64,000 nucleotides of DNA from Candidatus Taylorbacteria bacterium RIFCSPLOWO2_01_FULL_48_100 (GCA_001821135.1 MHSA01000012.1:6341-70340); one strand, 5' to 3'. Shown: positions 1 through 47,948, counted from the stretch's first letter. A program made the numbers and translations. Notes: a model not told the origin generated them from the sequence alone.

Positions 1-395
1 AACCCGCCCGAACGATTGACATCGTTCAGTCGGGCGGGCGAAATAACACGGCATATAAAATCTCATTGGAGGGAATGACATTGGTTTTCTTGGGTGCGCT
101 CTCGGATGCGGCGCTCCCTCCAGAAGTAAAGTCGGCGTTTGAAGACGTGGATATTTTGTTTGTGCCTGTTGGCGGCGGAGGCGTACTCCACGCTGGTGAC
201 GCGCATAAGCTTTCGGTCGCGCTTGAGCCGAAAATAATTATTCCTATGCATTTTGGAAAAGAAGGTAGTAAAGAACTAGCGCAATTTCTGAAAGAAAGTG
301 GGGAGAAGGGCGCGGAGCCAGTGGAAAAACTCACGCTCAAGAAAAAAGATATTGAAGGAAAAAAAGGCGAGGTAGTTGTGTTGCAGATAAGTTGA
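1..395 (+). CDS. MBL-fold metal-dependent hydrolase, C-terminal part (gene starts upstream of window)
   Basis: Reading frame is open from the window edge. The C-terminal motifs (ILFVPVGG, HAGDAHKLS, IIPMHF) are typical of UPF0173/MBL-fold hydrolases. Stop codon TGA at 393-395. Confidence 0.55.
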   Translation, partial: PARTIDIVQSGGRNNTAYKISLEGMTLVFLGALSDAALPPEVKSAFEDVDILFVPVGGGGVLHAGDAHKLSVALEPKIIIPMHFGKEGSKELAQFLKESGEKGAEPVEKLTLKKKDIEGKKGEVVVLQIS

Positions 396-10398: not shown

Positions 10399-10644
10399 AT
10401 GGGACCAGTTAACACCTTCATCAACAAAATCGGGGAGAACATTCTGAACCCCCTGATTTACCTTATGTTCGGGGTTGCATCCCTCACATTCGCGTGGGGG
10501 GTGTATGTGTTTCTCGCGAATCTAGACAATGAAGAAAAACGCAAAGAAGGCGGGTGGGCAATGCTCTGGGGTGTGCTCGGGATGGCGATAATGCTTGGAG
10601 CGAAGGGGATTGTAGCGGTTATAAAAGAGACGATTGGGGTGTGA
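10399..10644 (+). CDS. VirB2/TrbC-like pilin family small membrane protein (paralog 6, short)
   Basis: Core NLDNEEKRKEGGWAMLWGVLGMAIMLG. 81 aa. Confidence 0.5.
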   Translation: MGPVNTFINKIGENILNPLIYLMFGVASLTFAWGVYVFLANLDNEEKRKEGGWAMLWGVLGMAIMLGAKGIVAVIKETIGV

Positions 10645-10652
10645 GAATAAAG

Positions 10653-10765
10653 ACACCCCTCCGCCTCGCGGACTCGGCACCTCCCCTTAGGTTAAGGGCA
10701 GGATTGGAAAAAGAAAAACCCTCTCGCCCTTTTCATAAGGGGGAGAGGGTAGGGTGAGGGGGTGT
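10653..10765. repeat. GC-rich palindromic MITE-like repeat, copy 1 (modules A then B), with a terminator-like hairpin at 10791-10824
   Basis: Ends acacccctc...gagggggtgt are inverted. Near-identical to the copy at 14632-14744. Confidence 0.7.
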
Positions 10766-10830
10766 TTGAAACAGAAAATAAGAAAAAAATCACCCCCTCA
10801 CTTGTCCGACAAGTGAGGGGGTGTGTGTTT

Positions 10831-12774: not shown

Positions 12775-12868
12775 AGTTTTTCCTTTCGTTTCAGTTGTTT
12801 ATTGTCAAGGTTCTCTGTGCGGAAATATAGCACAAGGCGCGCTTGTAGTCAAGCGCGCCTAAAAGAAA

Positions 12869-12911
12869 GCCGACACCGAATGTTTGAAGCCCATCAACAT
12901 TCGGTGTCGGC
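12869..12911. repeat. conserved-loop hairpin family Y, copy 1 (16 bp stem, loop tgaagcccatc)
   Basis: gccgacaccgaatgtt-tgaagcccatc-aacattcggtgtcggc followed by a T-run. The same loop sequence recurs at 25301, 44201 and 47908. Confidence 0.6.
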
Positions 12912-12919
12912 TCATTACT

Positions 12920-14291: not shown

Positions 14292-14630
14292 ATGGCTGAA
14301 TATATTGAATCAGTAAGGCGGGATATTATGAGGCGCGTGTATGTCGTATTTTTTGTGCGAAAAGTGGTGAAGCCGTTTGTCATTAAAATGGGCTCGGTCG
14401 CCGCGCTTGCTGTTGCGGTCGCCGCGCTCGTATCCGTGCAAAATGTGCTCGGCAATATGCCGTCTCCTGCTGAGTTTGTATCCTTCGGCAAGTTTATATT
14501 CTCGGCATTTGCAAATACGGAACTCTCCGTGCAGGCGCTCTCGCTCGCGGTTGCTGTGCTCGCCGCATTTGCCGTCCGCGACCTCGCGCGCGTTTCGCGA
14601 CTTATCGGAGTACGACGGGTTGCAATGTAA
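14292..14630 (+). CDS. hypothetical membrane protein (possible anti-sigma partner)
   Basis: Hydrophobic 112 aa ORF directly downstream of the ECF sigma gene. No SD sequence. The anti-sigma role is inferred only from position. Confidence 0.35.
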   Translation: MAEYIESVRRDIMRRVYVVFFVRKVVKPFVIKMGSVAALAVAVAALVSVQNVLGNMPSPAEFVSFGKFIFSAFANTELSVQALSLAVAVLAAFAVRDLARVSRLIGVRRVAM

Positions 14631-14631
14631 T

Positions 14632-14744
14632 ACACCCCTCCGCCTCGCGGACTCGGCACCTCCCCTTAGGTTAAGGGCAGGATTGGAAAAAGAAAAACCC
14701 TCTCGCCCTTTTCATAAGGGGGAGAGGGCAGGGTGAGGGGGTGT
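14632..14744. repeat. GC-rich palindromic MITE-like repeat, copy 2
   Basis: Differs from copy 1 by a single mismatch. Lies between convergent genes and abuts the polX stop codon. Confidence 0.7.
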
Positions 14745-16414
14745 CATCTACCTCGGTTTCTTTTCAACCTCACCAGCATCTTTTCAACAGGAAGCGTATT
14801 TACAATATCTTTTTTCTCCGCCCAGCCGCGCCGCGCTTGTCCTATTCCAAGACGAAGCGCCTTGAAGCCGTCGGGTGAGTGCGCGTCGGAACCGATAGAA
14901 AGAAGAACGCCAGCTTGTACGCATTGCCGTATCAGTTCGTCGTGCAAATCAAGGCGCTCCGGCGCCGCGTCAATTTCCAAAACCGTGCCGTTTTCTTTTG
15001 CGGCGGCAATCACCTCGCTCCAGTCAGCGGCAATCGGAGGGCGTTTGTTCAGCATTCGCGCAGATGGGTGAAAGATAATATCCACGAGCGGGTGTTCAAT
15101 CGCTTTAATGAGCCGTTTCGTTTGTTCTTTCACCGAAAGCTCAAAGTGACTATGAACAGATGCGCCCGCAAAGTCCATTTTTGCGAGCGCATCGTCCGCA
15201 AGGTCCAGCGAGCCGTCTTTTTTTATATTCACCTCCGCGCTTTTCAGGATTCTTAATTTTACGCTTTCAGTTTTTAATTTTTTATTCAATGCGTCAATCT
15301 CTTTCACTTGTTCAGCAAACTCTTTTTCATTCATTCCACCAGTCATCGCAAGCCCCTGCGTGTGGTCGGTCATTGCAATGTATTCCAAGCCGAGTGCGCG
15401 CGCTGCGCGCGCCATCTCTTCTATAGAGCGCGTGCCGTCGGTCCAGTCCGAATGCGCCTGCAAGTCGCCTTTTAGGTCGTTATACCCAATTAGGTCTGGG
15501 AGTTTATTGTTTTGACTCGCTTCCAACTCACCTGTCATTTCCCGTAATTCGGGTTCAATATATTTAAGTCCTAATTTCGCATAAAGTTCTTCTTCTGTGC
15601 TAAATAATCCATGCTCATTTAATTTCCACCCTTTTTTGAGCGCTCGTTCGCGAAGCGCGATGTTGTGCGCCCTTGAACCAGTGAAATGGTTGAGCACCGC
15701 GCCCCATGACTCTGGCTGTACGATACGCACATTGATACGCTCTATTTCTGGAAGTTTAGCAATTTTCTTCATCGTTTCTTCCGGCTTTTCAGATACGGCG
15801 AGTATGTCTATGTCGCCGACCGTTTCTTTCATTCTGCGCACAGAGCCCGCGGCAACCGCCTTTTTCACTTCCGGAAATGCGCCGATTTTATGCTCCAGCG
15901 CGTGCGCGACGGGAAGTACCGCGCCGAGAATCATCCTCCCACCGACTTCGCGGCGGAACGCGATGCCTTTGAGAATCTTCTCTTCGCTTTTCTCGCCGAA
16001 GCCCGGTAGCGCGCGCAGGGTACCTGCGCGCGCGGCGGCTTCCAATTCGTCTAGATTTTTGATTTTTAATTTCTCCCACAGCGTCTTTACTGTTTTCGGC
16101 CCTATACCTTCCACCGCGACGAGCTCGCCGACTGCTACCGGCGTTTTCTTTTTCAGCCGTTCATATTCCGCAAAGGTTCCGCGCGCGAGGAGCTCGGCGA
16201 TGTGTGCGGCAATACCCGCGCCGATGCCGGGTATTTCCTTGAGCGCGCCGGGACCACCTATCGCAAAGGTCTCGTAGAGCGGTTCCTCGCGCGCCTCAAT
16301 CGCCAGTGCCGCGCGCTCGTACGCGCGCGGCTTGAACGGCTCGCTCTCCATTTCATACAACGCAGCCGTCTCGCCGAGCAGTTCCGCAATTCGGGTATTT
16401 GAGAGTTGCTTCAT
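14744..16414 (-). CDS. polX: DNA polymerase X family protein with PHP domain
   Basis: Pol beta-like N-terminus (helix-hairpin-helix GIGPKT, GSVRRMKETVGDIDIL) plus a C-terminal PHP phosphoesterase domain. Confidence 0.9.
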   Translation of the reverse strand: MKQLSNTRIAELLGETAALYEMESEPFKPRAYERAALAIEAREEPLYETFAIGGPGALKEIPGIGAGIAAHIAELLARGTFAEYERLKKKTPVAVGELVAVEGIGPKTVKTLWEKLKIKNLDELEAAARAGTLRALPGFGEKSEEKILKGIAFRREVGGRMILGAVLPVAHALEHKIGAFPEVKKAVAAGSVRRMKETVGDIDILAVSEKPEETMKKIAKLPEIERINVRIVQPESWGAVLNHFTGSRAHNIALRERALKKGWKLNEHGLFSTEEELYAKLGLKYIEPELREMTGELEASQNNKLPDLIGYNDLKGDLQAHSDWTDGTRSIEEMARAARALGLEYIAMTDHTQGLAMTGGMNEKEFAEQVKEIDALNKKLKTESVKLRILKSAEVNIKKDGSLDLADDALAKMDFAGASVHSHFELSVKEQTKRLIKAIEHPLVDIIFHPSARMLNKRPPIAADWSEVIAAAKENGTVLEIDAAPERLDLHDELIRQCVQAGVLLSIGSDAHSPDGFKALRLGIGQARRGWAEKKDIVNTLPVEKMLVRLKRNRGR

Positions 16415-17342: not shown

Positions 17343-17350
17343 GACAAAAA

Positions 17351-17445
17351 TCCTCTCGCCCTTTTCCAAAGTGGGAGAGGGTAGGGTGAGGGGGTGTAAG
17401 AAAAAAACACCCCTCCCTTTCCCTCCCCTTAGGTTAAGGGCAGGG
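17351..17445. repeat. GC-rich MITE-like repeat, copy 3 (module order B then A, permuted)
   Basis: cctctcgcccttttccaaagtgggagagggtagggtgagggggtgt, then acacccctccc...ccccttaggttaagggcaggg. Confidence 0.65.
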
Positions 17446-22176: not shown

Positions 22177-23439
22177 ATGTTGGATATAAAATTCATTCGG
22201 GAAAACAAAGAACTCATCGCCGAGGCGGCGCGGAAGAAGCACATCGCGTTCAAGGTGGATGAGCTGATTACCGCAGACGATGAGCGCCGCGCGGTGCTTA
22301 AAATCGTTGAAGACAAACGCGCGGAGCAGAATCGCAAAAGCGAGCAGATTACGCGCGCGCACGACGACAATAAGCGCCAGGCGTTTGTGGAGGAGATGCG
22401 CGCGCTCAAAGTCGGTCTTCAAGAGGAGGAAGAACGGCTGAAAAAGACGACCCAAAAATGGCAGTCGCTAATGCTTCTAGTCCCAAATGTTCCAGATATT
22501 TCGGTGCCGGAAGGGGTTGGCGAGGAAGACAATAAAGAAATGCGGACATGGGGAGAAAAGCCGGAGTTCACATTTGAGCCAAAGAGCCATATTGAACTTA
22601 TGAAGGCGCTTGATATGGCGGATTTTGAACGCGGCGCGGCTGTGTCGGGCTTTCGCGGATATTTCTTGAAGAATGACGGTGCGCTTTTGTCGCTTGCACT
22701 ATGGCGGCTGTGTATGGATTTCTTTACAAAGAAAGATTTTTCGCCAATACTTGCGCCGTCCTTGGTTCGGCGCGAATCACTTCTCGGAACCGGGTATTTG
22801 CCTCAAGGAGAAGACGATTTATACAAAACGCAAGACGGCGACTATCTTGCAGGCACCGCGGAAGTGCCGGTTATGTCGTATTTTGCGGACACAATTTTGA
22901 GTGAGGAAGAATTGCCGAAAAAAATAATTGCGTTCTCTCCGTGTTTTCGGCGTGAGGCGGGGAGCCACGGAAAAGATACAAAAGGGCTGATGCGTGTGCA
23001 TGAGTTTTTCAAGTGCGAGCAAGTGGTGCTTTGCGAAGCGAGCCATCAGGCGTCTGTTGCTTTACACGAAGAGATAAATCGCAACGAGGAGGAATTTATG
23101 GAAACTCTCGGTATTCCCTATCGTACAGTTATCAACTGTGGCGCTGACCTTGGTCTTGGGCAAGTAAAAAAATACGACATTGAATTATGGGTGCCGTCGG
23201 AAAAACGGTATCGGGAAATAAGCTCCGCCTCATACTTCCATGATTTTCAGACACGACGGCTTAATATTCGCTACAAAAACAAAGATGATAAAGCACAATT
23301 TGCCCATTCACTGAATTGCACTGCCGCGCCAACGCCCCGTCTTTTGATTTCCATCCTTGAAAACAACCAGCGCGCGGACGGGAGCATTGCGGTTCCTAAA
23401 GTGCTGGTGCCGTATTTTGGAAAAGAAGAAATAAGATAA
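22177..23439 (+). CDS. serS: serine--tRNA ligase
   Basis: N-terminal coiled coil (MLDIKFIREN) and class II core motifs. Start taken at the internal Met. Confidence 0.9.
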   Translation: MLDIKFIRENKELIAEAARKKHIAFKVDELITADDERRAVLKIVEDKRAEQNRKSEQITRAHDDNKRQAFVEEMRALKVGLQEEEERLKKTTQKWQSLMLLVPNVPDISVPEGVGEEDNKEMRTWGEKPEFTFEPKSHIELMKALDMADFERGAAVSGFRGYFLKNDGALLSLALWRLCMDFFTKKDFSPILAPSLVRRESLLGTGYLPQGEDDLYKTQDGDYLAGTAEVPVMSYFADTILSEEELPKKIIAFSPCFRREAGSHGKDTKGLMRVHEFFKCEQVVLCEASHQASVALHEEINRNEEEFMETLGIPYRTVINCGADLGLGQVKKYDIELWVPSEKRYREISSASYFHDFQTRRLNIRYKNKDDKAQFAHSLNCTAAPTPRLLISILENNQRADGSIAVPKVLVPYFGKEEIR

Positions 23440-23441
23440 CA

Positions 23442-23632
23442 CTCGGAATGCTGCTTTTGCGGAACCGGAAAATTTCCCCTGCGAGGAAATTTTCCTTATC
23501 CGCTCGCCTCGCTCTTCCTCGCAGATTCGGAATCCATGCCCGCTCGGCTCCTCGCCCGCCCGTACCGAAACGGTACATTTCGGGCGGGCCGTTCCGCAAC
23601 CTGTCTGCCGACAGGCAGAAAGCACATTGCTT
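23442..23632. repeat. TIR-bounded structured element, copy 1 (long form with two extra nested hairpins)
   Basis: Shares ~110 nt at near identity with 43881-44015. Outer 20 bp stem ggaatgctgcttttgcggaac/gttccgcaa..agcacattgc. Begins 3 nt after the serS stop. Confidence 0.7.
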
Positions 23633-23800
23633 TCGTTATAAAAAACATATATCAATATAATCTGCGACCGCGTACTATATTGATATGCGAGCGTATTTCA
23701 GTATTTTGCAAAATACTTGTATGGATTAATTCGTGAGAATTAGAGAATATAAAAAATAAAAAAGCCGCCCTTACGAACGGCCTGTTTTTTCAGATGCGGC

Positions 23801-24388
23801 TTAATAACTTTCCGCTTTTTCTTTAAACTGTTCAAAGTTTTGATACAACTCTGTGCGGAATCCGAAAGCCGCCGCACCTTCTGTATTTTCAACATCATCG
23901 TCCCAAAAAACTACCGCTTCTTTTTTCATTCCGGTTTTTTCTAAGATGTATTGAAAGAATGCGGCATCAGGTTTTTTCGAGCTGACATAAGCCGAAGAAA
24001 ATACGCCATCAAACCAATTACTCAATCCTCGTTTTTCTACAAGATTATCGGTACGATACTTTTCGTTGTTGGTCGCAAGATAGATTTTCACCCCTTTTGC
24101 CCTCAACGCTTGAATGGTGGTCTTAAATCTCTTATCAATTGCGGTGTGTTTCTCTGAAAACCAACAATCTAGAAAAGCATCAACGCCGTCTTTCCACCCC
24201 CATTGTTTCAAGTATTTCCGGAGTTCTTTTTTCAGATCTAATTTTCCTACCACACAGAGTTGGAATTCGTTACGAAAGAATGGGCCAGTGACCTCAGTAG
24301 AAATTCCGTATTCGCGCGCAAGCCGATTACTGAACCGTTCGCCGTGAACAATCATCCCGTCTGCATCAAGAATAAGTGCCTTTGTCAT
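23801..24388 (-). CDS. HAD-superfamily hydrolase
   Basis: DxD motif I (LILDADGMIV) and a later DDD motif. Minus-strand terminator downstream. Confidence 0.75.
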   Translation of the reverse strand: MTKALILDADGMIVHGERFSNRLAREYGISTEVTGPFFRNEFQLCVVGKLDLKKELRKYLKQWGWKDGVDAFLDCWFSEKHTAIDKRFKTTIQALRAKGVKIYLATNNEKYRTDNLVEKRGLSNWFDGVFSSAYVSSKKPDAAFFQYILEKTGMKKEAVVFWDDDVENTEGAAAFGFRTELYQNFEQFKEKAESY

Positions 24389-25300: not shown

Positions 25301-25336
25301 TAGACACACGATGTTGATGTGCTTCAAACATCTGGT
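25301..25336. repeat. hairpin family Y, copy 2 (reverse orientation)
   Basis: cacgatgttgatgtgcttcaaacatctggtg; reverse complement of the Y consensus. Confidence 0.55.
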
Positions 25337-25387
25337 GCCCCTGCAATTTATCATTAAGCCACGATCGTATCTTAATAATAAAACTAA

Positions 25388-43598: not shown

Positions 43599-43874
43599 AT
43601 GTCTCCAGAAGAAAAAGCACTGCTTCTCAAGACCGCGGAGTTGGTGAAAGAAAATAATTCGCTACTCCGCAAGATGCGACGCGGCGCGCGTTTCCGCGCG
43701 GTTCTCCACGCTCTTTATTGGGTAGTTATTATCGGGCTTTCGTTCGGCGCATATTACTTTCTTGAACCCTACATCGCACAGGTGGAAAAAATCTATTCGG
43801 GCATCAGAGGCGATATAGACAATGTACGCGGCACGGCGGATACCATAGGCGACTTCGGGAAGTTGCTGCAATAA
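43599..43874 (+). CDS. hypothetical membrane protein
   Basis: One TM helix. Followed immediately by the copy 2 structured element. Confidence 0.4.
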   Translation: MSPEEKALLLKTAELVKENNSLLRKMRRGARFRAVLHALYWVVIIGLSFGAYYFLEPYIAQVEKIYSGIRGDIDNVRGTADTIGDFGKLLQ

Positions 43875-43880
43875 AAGACG

Positions 43881-44015
43881 CTCGGAATGCTGCTTTTGCA
43901 GAACCGGAAGATTTCCCCTGCGAGGAAATCTTCCTTATCCGCTCGCCTCGCTCTTCCTCGCAGACTCGGAATCCATGCCCGCTCGGCTCCTCGCCGTTCC
44001 GCAAAAGCACATTCC
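43881..44015. repeat. TIR-bounded structured element, copy 2 (short form)
   Basis: Near-identical to 23442-23556 plus the shared 3' arm. Outer stem ggaatgctgcttttgcagaac/gttccgcaaaagcacattcc. Confidence 0.7.
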
Positions 44016-44096
44016 TCACTCTCGTTATTTATTTCAACACTATTCCAATTAAACGCTATAGCAAGTAACTGGAATAGTTTACTCAATTCAACATAC

Positions 44097-44140
44097 ACTA
44101 TCTCTAGCAATCGCCAAAGATAGTGTATCCAATCATTTTG
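44097..44140. repeat. hairpin family X, copy 2
   Basis: tacactatctctagcaatcgccaaagatagtgta + attttgc. Confidence 0.5.
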
Positions 44141-44200
44141 CCTGCCCGCCGACGAGGAGGGCAAAATGTCTGTATATCCCGACATCCTCTTTGGCACCAG

Positions 44201-44232
44201 ATGTTGATGGTTTCAAACATCTGGTGCGTCTC
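44201..44232. repeat. hairpin family Y, copy 3
   Basis: caccagatgttgatggtttcaaacatctggtg. Confidence 0.5.
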
Positions 44233-44270: not shown

Positions 44271-44566
44271 GCCGAGGTAGCTCAGTTGGTAGAGCGTCCG
44301 CCTGAAATCTTCGGGCCTTTCCGCCGCAAGGCGGATAGAAAAGCGGGTGAAATCGGGGAACATCCAATGACAAACAATCGGACAATCCCGAGCCAAGCTC
44401 GCCGAATAGGCGAGAAGGTGTAGAGACTATTCCTTTGGGAAGTACCCTCTTTTTAACAAAAGATGGGGAAGCGCCCGCCCCCTACTCCATCAAAGATGGA
44501 CGGGTGATGATATAGTCCAAATTATGGAAGAGCGGTAGGTCGGCAGTTCGATTCTGCCCCTCGGCA
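44271..44566 (+). tRNA. tRNA-Phe(GAA) interrupted by a group I intron in the anticodon loop
   Basis: 5' exon 44271-44303 (acceptor gccgagg, D-arm tagctcagttggtagagc, anticodon-stem 5' strand tccgc, loop cu|). 3' exon 44527-44566 (gaaga, anticodon-stem 3' strand gcggt, variable loop, T-arm ggcag-ttcgatt-ctgcc, acceptor cctcggc-a). Confidence 0.7.
44304..44526 (+). other. group I intron (~223 nt) within tRNA-Phe
   Basis: Contains group I core-like elements: P-like aaaagcgggtgaaa, Q-like aatcccgagc, R-like tagagactat, S-like gatatagtcc. The last 5' exon base is U, the intron ends in G, and an internal guide GGGC can pair with the exon end GCCU. Confidence 0.6.
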
Positions 44567-44600
44567 TTTGTAAAATTAGGAATTTTTTATAAAAACCACT

Positions 44601-47907: not shown

Positions 47908-47948
47908 CACACACCCGATGTTTGAAGCCCATCAACATCGGGTGTTGT
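47908..47948. repeat. hairpin family Y, copy 4
   Basis: cacccgatgtt-tgaagcccatc-aacatcgggtg; loop sequence identical to copy 1. Confidence 0.55.

Follow-up and report, generated by a model that had tools for sequence, protein, structure and literature searches.

We describe here a structured repeat of approximately 135 nucleotides (nt) that lies directly downstream of two genes, serS and an open reading frame (ORF) of 91 amino acids (aa; ORF91), in a 64,000-nt stretch of DNA from Candidatus Taylorbacteria bacterium RIFCSPLOWO2_01_FULL_48_100 (GCA_001821135.1 MHSA01000012.1:6341-70340), hereafter referred to as the window. The element probably represents a new family of ERIC/bcr1/Correia/BOX-like structured interspersed repeats which is restricted to this Taylorbacteria genome and its close relatives; judged by its sequence, it belongs to none of the ERIC, bcr1, Correia or BOX families themselves.

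The original prediction, that the DNA after the stop codons of serS and of the ORF at 43599-43874 is near-identical, was borne out by a gapless alignment of 23439-23556 with 43878-43995 (repeat family D2), which gave 96% identity over 118 nt with four differences between the copies, all of them transitions and in both directions (G/A, A/G, T/C, T/C). Searches with three sub-motifs, allowing up to three mismatches, found matches at exactly these two sites in the window, where 0.00-0.06 would be expected by chance. The limits of the element were set to 23440-23639 (copy 1) and 43879-44028 (copy 2), slightly wider than first proposed, so as to take in the 5 nt that lead into it, C[A/G]CTC, and a brief tail, both of them conserved. 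Copy 1 begins directly after serS (22177-23439, stop codon 23437-23439) and copy 2 begins 4 nt after ORF91 (43599-43874, stop codon 43872-43874).

Each unit opens with the lead CGCTC, followed by a 20-base-pair (bp) outer stem, P1, with one conserved bulged C. The core enclosed by this stem is multi-branched, comprising hairpins P2 (11 bp), P3 (weak) and P4 (3 bp), and the helices are joined by C/T-rich unpaired stretches which repeat the motifs CGCTC and CCTCGC. An enclosing stem of about 20 bp had been anticipated for both copies; it consists of GGAATGCTGCTTTTGC[G/A]GAAC paired with GTTCCGCAAAAGCACATT[G/C]C or, with the bulge written out, GGAATG-C-TGCTTTTGC[G/A]GAAC with GTTCCGCAAAAGCACATT[G/C]C (20-21 bp), and the minimum-free-energy fold includes it whichever strand is folded (z = -4.2 to -5.1; 0/200 shuffles fold as well). 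The conserved inner hairpin reads GGAA.ATTTCC-N7-GGAAAT.TTCC. The parts of the two copies are as follows.

23440 to 23444, + strand: lead of copy 1, CACTC (all other copies have CGCTC), directly after the serS stop codon
23445 to 23465, + strand: P1 5' arm of copy 1, GGAATG-C(bulge)-TGCTTTTGCGGAAC
23467 to 23495, + strand: hairpin P2 of copy 1, 11-bp stem and 7-nt loop (13 bp, one of them G.U, on the minus strand)
23496 to 23537, + strand: central junction of copy 1, the conserved unpaired CTTATCCGCTCGCCTCGCTC and the weak, variable hairpin P3 (TTCC...GGAA)
23538 to 23556, + strand: P4 of copy 1, GCC-CGCTC-GGC (23538-23548), then the invariant junction TCCTCGCC (23549-23556)
23557 to 23589, + strand: nested hairpin insertion 1 of copy 1, stem GCCCGCCCG/CGGGCGGGC; the stem starts at 23554, borrowing GCC
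23591 to 23599, + strand: first part of the P1 3' arm of copy 1, GTTCCGCAA
23600 to 23619, + strand: nested hairpin insertion 2 of copy 1, CCTGTCTGCCGACAGGCAGA, which splits the P1 3' arm
23620 to 23639, + strand: second part of the P1 3' arm of copy 1, AAGCACATTGC (one G.G mismatch), and the short tail TTTCGTTAT
43879 to 43883, + strand: lead of copy 2, CGCTC, 4 nt after the ORF91 stop codon
43884 to 43904, + strand: P1 5' arm of copy 2
43906 to 43934, + strand: hairpin P2 of copy 2, with one compensated pair relative to copy 1 (A-T to G-C)
43935 to 43995, + strand: central junction, P3, P4 (43977-43987) and invariant TCCTCGCC (43988-43995) of copy 2
43996 to 44028, + strand: P1 3' arm of copy 2, GTTCCGCAAAAGCACATTCC (43996-44015), and tail TCACTCTCGTTAT

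The two extra hairpins of copy 1, one of them dividing the outer stem, are thus where they had been placed, and their interpretation as secondary insertions is well founded, both being absent from the orthologous serS copy of a related genome (locus L025, below) and each belonging to a family found nested elsewhere. An internal palindrome (ctgcgaggaa...ttcctcgcag) fared less well, as it is not conserved. The 10-bp pairing CTGCGAGGAA/TTCCTCGCAG is present in both window copies but not conserved in the further copies L020, L024 and L025, and on that ground was rejected as a competing pairing that might act as a switch. Both ORFs suspected to be artefacts of the repeat, 23308-23655(-) and 43793-44197(-), appear in the mechanical ORF list.

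Extra copies were found by pattern scans of public genome and metagenome collections, with gene identities taken from Pfam, and orthologous loci were obtained via homologues of SerS and ORF91; L numbers denote the loci of both kinds. The scan of the genome collection with the left arm returned three chance matches and one real partial copy; that of the metagenome collection returned five loci and missed the window's own JGI contigs (L009, L011) despite their carrying the pattern, so copy numbers should be regarded as lower bounds. Fifteen assemblies of the same population contain identical copies, and the further loci in these collections keep both the fold and the placement. An intact copy follows a 216-aa gene in L020/L022; at the same locus in a sister strain (L021/L023) the element breaks off within the inner hairpin and gives way to a different repeat family, the distal part having been replaced at an AAAAA(T)CCC microhomology. 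L024 has an intact copy after the RNase J gene with a 33-nt hairpin nested in its centre, and L002, a 1.5-kilobase (kb) contig (JBASTF010000603.1), retains only the left arm and inner hairpin, after MurJ. L025, in which SerS is 84% identical to that of the window, has a strongly diverged yet intact copy directly after the serS stop codon. In L040, from the same sample as L025, the ORF91 ortholog is followed by GACGCTCGG/CATAGGTACTTCCTCGCT, the remnant of an L025-type element after a deletion from one CTCGG repeat to another. No element is present in relatives whose SerS is 75-83% identical, the next gene there starting 2-70 nt past serS, and none follows ORF91 in L038 or L039. Searching with a covariance model of the five intact copies recovered the 2 copies in the 64-kb window and nothing further, divergent or not, there or in approximately 145 kb of related loci; three scans of viral contigs yielded no copies, and blastn against plasmids, phages and Escherichia coli genomes showed no similarity.

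In total five independent gene ends carry the element, the distance from stop codon to lead being 0 nt for serS, 4 nt for ORF91, 3 nt for RNase J, 2 nt for MurJ and 4 nt for the 216-aa gene. The shared orientation and placement first noticed in the window therefore extend to all five, the orientation being that of the upstream gene in every case; four further agreements would arise by chance with a probability of 1/16. Beyond the hairpin array as a whole come canonical terminators (A run, GC hairpin, T run), in the window (stem 23762-23783) as well as in L025, L020 and L023. Since the element is situated between the stop codon and the terminator it would form part of the 3' untranslated region (UTR), and it is from this position only that we infer its transcription with the upstream gene. 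In four of the five copies the 3' arm is followed, 5-6 nt past the stem, by a T-rich tail (TCACTTTTGTTTTTAC in L020; GTGTTTTC in L025).

The alignment of the five intact copies spans 161 columns, from which RNAalifold recovers three helices: the outer stem P1, the 11-bp hairpin P2 and the 3-bp hairpin P4. Across these helices 97% of cells pair and 13 of 34 pairs have changed on both sides, with no pair in the count changed on one side only. None of 500 column shuffles reached any of the observed measures of pairing or covariation, and when partner columns were slid by 1-3 positions pairing fell to 35-54% and the doubly changed pairs to 0-2. L025 by itself folds to the same architecture (z = -6.5). 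Between the window and the L025/L040 genome synonymous sites are near saturation, the synonymous divergence (dS) being 1.5 in serS and 1.3 in ORF91, with 54% identity at third codon positions. Over that divergence P1 is only 51% identical and yet 95% paired, while the unpaired motifs (the lead CGCTC, CTTATCCGCTCG and TCCTCGCC) are 100% identical; the unpaired motifs are thus constrained in sequence and the stems in pairing. P2 is the fastest-changing part, with several compensated pairs among six sequences, and the remainder is 92-98% identical among window-type copies. Each element holds CGCTC 3-5 times and CCTCGC 3 times, mostly unpaired, as compared with a window background of 2.0 and 0.5 per kb, respectively, and in five sequences the P2 loop has several alternative pseudoknot partners among the CCTCGC motifs.

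Searches of existing catalogues gave no match for this structure. In particular the possibility of a known terminator class was addressed with Rfam 15, in which nothing reached the gathering score and permissive settings (E <= 10) returned noise (E >= 0.19), none of it on the element core, so that the element belongs to no catalogued class of terminator. Full-text literature searches found no relevant report of interspersed repeats in the candidate phyla radiation or the Taylorbacteria.

Rather than standing alone, the element heads mosaic arrays in which several hairpin families are combined. Shared modules follow it in varying order in the window, L020, L025, L040 and L002, and those following copy 2 also follow the element in L025 and L020. 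The remaining modules in the window are as follows.

23646 to 23795: rest of the serS 3' array, consisting of a hairpin (23646-23687), the 'empty' palindrome AGTATTTTGCAAAATACT (23700-23717) and a two-way terminator (23762-23783) which is flanked by A and T runs and common to serS and a convergent HAD gene
44039 to 44227: modules after copy 2, at 44039-44078, 44093-44128, 44133-44169 (filled palindrome) and 44194-44227 (CACCAGATG family)

The family of insertion 1 also occurs at window 3-38, L025 12736-12767 and L034 4243-4272, and in L025 and L034 it nests inside hairpins of a CACC..GGTG type. Insertion 2 belongs to a mini-hairpin family, CCTGTC[CT]GCCGA..GGC[AG]G, CCTGTCTGCCGACAGGCAGA sharing its 5' part with the mini-hairpin CCTGTCCGCCGATGAGGCGGG; a loose pattern for this family has 11 matches in the window and related loci, against 0.09 expected per 64 kb. 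In L025 (7410-7445) and at window 44133-44169 the mini-hairpin occupies the middle of the palindrome CAGTATTTTGC/GCAAAATACTTG, which is empty at window 23700-23717 (the orthologous serS site), L020 and L040. This GC-rich mini-hairpin of about 21 nt (CTGTCCGCCGATGAGGCGGG) sits exactly at the palindrome centre, and the palindrome occurs both with and without it at the orthologous site downstream of serS in two genomes. The small hairpins appear to target the apices of other palindromes.

Other repeats were observed in the same sequences. The 33-nt hairpin family CACC.GATGTT-loop-AACATC.GGTG occurs at window 12868-12912, 25303-25337, 44194-44227 and 47911-47945, L024 9105-9137 and L025 7250-7285, with the loop GATGGGCTTCA conserved in most copies, compensated stem changes and both orientations represented; it is found alone in intergenic DNA or nested in the 135-nt element (L024). 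In L034 (4220-4290), whose SerS is 81% identical, the end of serS lies within a CACC..GGTG hairpin that has a GCCCGCCCG hairpin nested in it and that provides the last codons and stop of the gene, giving a protein of 423 aa versus 420, so hairpin modules can rewrite gene 3' ends. Another structured repeat family, about 120 nt long and unrelated to the first (ACACCCCTCCGCC...GGGTGAGGGGGTGT), is present at window 10643-10767, 14622-14746 and 17345-17444 and in L021/L023, where it is the family replacing the distal element; it also begins 1-9 nt past stop codons. In the window as a whole there are 38 perfect hairpins whose stems reach 9 bp or more, compared to 0-4 in shuffles (about 2 expected), and many of them are shared with related genomes.

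As to the neighbouring genes, the interval from serS to the next conserved gene encodes a HAD hydrolase in the window (23801-24388, minus strand) and an unrelated 113-aa protein in L025 (7526-7867, minus strand); both genes are convergent with serS and terminate at the same shared terminator and hairpin array, and other relatives have neither. At approximately 44271-44570 a tRNA gene is split by a group I intron (Rfam Intron_gpI, 44294-44532, 58.6 bits) and was not called by ARAGORN. It opens a block of about 4 kb, with ORFs of 62 aa, 181 aa (AbiU2/HEPN-like) and 817 aa, that is absent from L038.

What the repeat does is a separate matter from what it is, and a role at the RNA level, whilst possible, is put forward tentatively. 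In such a model the non-autonomous repeat would be co-transcribed with the upstream gene as its 3' UTR, and the 3' end of the messenger RNA (mRNA) would be acted on by the closing stem of 20 bp together with the branched core, most likely as a barrier to 3' exonucleases or as a site for double-strand processing of the RNase III type, either of which would determine where the upstream mRNA ends and how stable it is. Spread and turnover would take place by recombination or through a trans-acting enzyme. Copies have been gained, truncated and deleted over short evolutionary times and have reached the 3' ends of housekeeping genes with no relation to one another.

Several observations weigh against this interpretation and call for caution. 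A simple terminator scan does not call the element. Most of the covariation in P1 and P4 stems from a single divergent sequence, L025. Furthermore, the arms are alike at both sites of the window genome and, in a different version, at both sites of the L025/L040 genome, which suggests gene conversion, homogenisation or re-spread, so that the changes are not independent events. Hairpin modules are common to different genomes at 90-100% identity, and horizontal exchange may have inflated the apparent conservation relative to dS. On the plus strand P1, P2 and P4 vary by fully Watson-Crick changes without any G.U, and the three single-sided departures (A.C in copy 2, C.A in L024 and C.A at the P2 apex) become G.U on the minus strand. 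These features fit a palindrome acting as DNA, or an RNA read from the minus strand, no less well than they fit a plus-strand RNA, and the lack of G.U accords with template-switch repair of quasi-palindromes as well as with an RNA. Finally, three of the eight loci (L002, L023 and L040) have decayed copies, either truncated or deleted, indicating that the element is dispensable for the upstream gene.

The most serious rival is that the repeat is a selfish palindrome acting as DNA, either a MITE (a miniature transposable element with inverted repeats) or of the REP/REPIN type, in which the hairpins are needed as single-stranded DNA (ssDNA) or cruciforms by a trans-acting transposase of the HUH/Y1 RAYT-like or DDE kind; the placement and co-orientation at stop codons would then reflect target choice, or compact genomes that tolerate few other insertions. 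We regard this as unlikely, if well worth considering. It would account for the terminal inverted repeats (arms of 20-21 nt with one bulge in all five intact copies), for a small, non-coding, multi-copy element that is polymorphic (about 135 nt, five gene contexts, absent at orthologous sites, with truncated and deleted copies) and for the strictly Watson-Crick stem changes, and the fold is stable as ssDNA as well (z = -3.4). The nesting of small hairpin families in other palindromes and the second 120-nt family at stop codons are also in keeping with it, as is a constant 5-nt direct repeat on both flanks, as in bcr1 (PMC3184786). This last repeat, CGCTC / C[AG]CT[CT], is however the same at every copy, conservation runs 5-10 nt past the right-hand repeat, and the empty serS sites lack the whole array and so offer no precise empty junction; a target duplication is thus not demonstrable, and no variable one was seen at any copy. 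No transposase or recombinase was found in the 64-kb window or the flanking loci and no RAYT (Y1 transposase) in the window, and the only insertion sequence (IS) observed, of the rve family in L023, has ends which do not match the arms of the element. The unpaired motifs are moreover better conserved than the inverted repeats, the opposite of what is usual for repeats bound by a transposase, and a single orientation is seen at all five sites. The original prediction, of either a transcribed 3' UTR RNA or a miniature element with terminal inverted repeats, is supported in part: the dispersed, structured repeat bounded by inverted repeats stands, and no variable target-site duplication, transposase or matching IS was seen in the window and loci.

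A functional minus strand, that is, a small RNA gene directed towards the upstream gene, possibly with a micro-ORF of 13-14 codons or purine-rich GGA/GAGCG protein-binding motifs, and with a transcript ended by the outer stem and the U-rich complement of the stop-codon region, has little chance of being correct. The consensus fold is stronger on this strand (-66.1 versus -53.3 kcal/mol, with 16 versus 14 doubly changed pairs), and all three single-sided departures turn into G.U on it; these three cases have no statistical weight, however (p about 0.25). A micro-ORF (AGGAG-N10-ATG...TAA) is present in four of the five intact copies, encoding MDSESARKSEASG in copies 1 and 2 (minus strand, window 23506-23556 and 43945-43995), MVSESARKSEASG in L020 and MDSRAKRGRSEPSG in L025. 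It ends at the conserved GGATAAG, an indel in L025 keeps its frame and the sole difference between the window copies is synonymous, but the otherwise intact L024 has lost the ATG and has a hairpin inserted within the micro-ORF, and a purine-rich strand will give charged peptides in any frame. There is a weak promoter-like site on the minus strand at 23701-23674, none was found near copy 2, and in the window and L025 the two-way terminator shields the element from the convergent gene.

Still less probable is a structured recombination site, similar to the attC of integrons or to an att site, marking the insertion of accessory blocks beside core genes. Such a site might be expected to start at a stop codon in fixed orientation, with structure conserved above sequence and a conserved bulged base, as observed, and the DNA to the right of the element is indeed variable: after serS come the HAD gene in the window and the unrelated 113-aa gene in L025, both absent in other relatives, the 4-kb block after copy 2 (intron-bearing tRNA, AbiU2-like ORF and 817-aa ORF) is missing from L038, a SocA/Panacea gene follows the L024 copy, and an IS lies near L023. 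The stem ends nonetheless lack the core sites RYYYAAC/GTTRRRY, the outer ends being GGAATG/CATTCC and the inner GAAC/GTTC, which is replaced by GAGAC/GTCTC in L025; no tyrosine recombinase, IntI integrase or cassette array was found in the window and loci, the copies follow housekeeping genes as opposed to lying in cassette arrays, and no matching second site bounds the variable blocks.

Least probable of all is that the upstream gene has an intrinsic terminator of exceptional size which has simply been duplicated, as, despite the position right after stop codons and the T-rich tail in four of five copies, the stem closes a multi-branch loop of about 90 nt, 5-6 non-T bases precede the T-rich stretch, the scan passes the element over and the same intergenic regions have canonical terminators further downstream.

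Two other candidates were rejected outright. Read-through or extension of the upstream protein was dismissed given that the stop spacing places the element in all three frames and the plus-strand ATG is lost in L025, and a template/variable repeat pair of a diversity-generating retroelement given that the repeats are outside coding sequence and their differences are not adenine-specific.

We return, then, to a new family of structured interspersed repeats, for which the wider setting may be of some importance. Candidate-phyla-radiation genomes are small, and yet the window is rich in structured repeat families which lie at stop codons, nest in one another and turn over between close strains. 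Within this setting the 135-nt element is an unusually clean dispersed repeat, with its fold maintained by compensatory change near synonymous saturation, and it provides a handle on two questions: whether repeats of this sort play a part at mRNA 3' ends, and how they spread without obvious transposases. It is also conceivable, albeit rather improbable, that the element and its modules together form a self-propagating system of an undescribed kind, landing at stop codons and palindrome apices without a classical transposase, for example by an ssDNA (HUH-like) or RNA-templated route, and serving in addition as a 3' UTR platform whose four to five unpaired CGCUC/CCUCGC motifs bind a protein or RNA to control the fate of core-gene mRNAs. 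On a practical level such repeats give rise to spurious ORFs and will probably disrupt the assembly and binning of metagenomes, the L002 copy being a case in point: its contig was deposited in a Rubrivivax metagenome-assembled genome, bears a Taylorbacteria-type element and hairpin modules, and is probably misbinned. The features most worth following are the way small hairpins nest in the centres of palindromes and the strictness with which the element is placed at stop codons.

Comparison with known systems places the element within a recognised class. It resembles attC sites in starting at the stop codon of the preceding ORF, in its fixed orientation, its conservation of structure above sequence, its extrahelical bases and its variable length, and differs from them in the absence here of core sites and integrase. 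REP/BIME sequences of E. coli and Pseudomonas likewise form palindromic mosaics at gene 3' ends or between convergent genes, where they help to stabilise mRNA and take part in recombination (PMC3184786), and mosaic clusters at gene 3' ends are found here too; however, REPs are 20-40 nt in length, very numerous and linked to RAYTs, whereas the present element is 135 nt and of low copy, and it is only the small nested hairpins (CACC..GGTG, GCCCGCCCG and CCGCCGA) that fit the REP description. The pneumococcal BOX, RUP and SPRITE repeats are modular and structured, bunch in intergenic regions and insert into each other (PMC10969869, PMC3049150) in a similar fashion, with module sequences and architecture that are different, the modules described here being mostly perfect hairpins that nest at palindrome centres.

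Further parallels are the Correia elements, ERIC and bcr1. Correia elements, the MITEs of Neisseria, are 100-155 bp with inverted repeats that give a transcript stem of at least 20 bp, which is cut by RNase III with consequences for mRNA fate (PMC10969869); their TA target duplications, IHF sites, promoters, presence in both orientations and hundreds of copies have no counterpart in what was seen here. ERIC is a long, imperfect intergenic palindrome of similar size at gene 3' ends, in which internal insertions give size variants, for which no transposase is known and for which an effect on transcript stability has been reported (PMC10969869). It is found in another phylum and forms one long hairpin as opposed to a multi-branch core abutting the stop codon in one orientation, and there is no sequence similarity, a distant-mode blastn search for homology to the 127-bp consensus against all complete E. 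coli genomes (5,426) having given no match. The bcr1 repeat of the Bacillus cereus group (about 155 bp) is patchily distributed between close strains, has a constant 5-bp flanking direct repeat, is transcribed, and has a cruciform-like fold kept by compensatory changes (PMC3184786). Its sequence and host are unrelated, and in the present element the flank is CGCTC with conservation beyond it and transcription is putative. The size of the element, its closure by inverted repeats, its non-coding nature, polymorphism and decay, its clustering and mutual insertion with other modules and its compensatory fold nevertheless all argue for membership of this known class of small structured interspersed repeats. 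The repeat is real, reproducible and under structural constraint; it is a known kind of object, of a family that is new in a group without described repeats.

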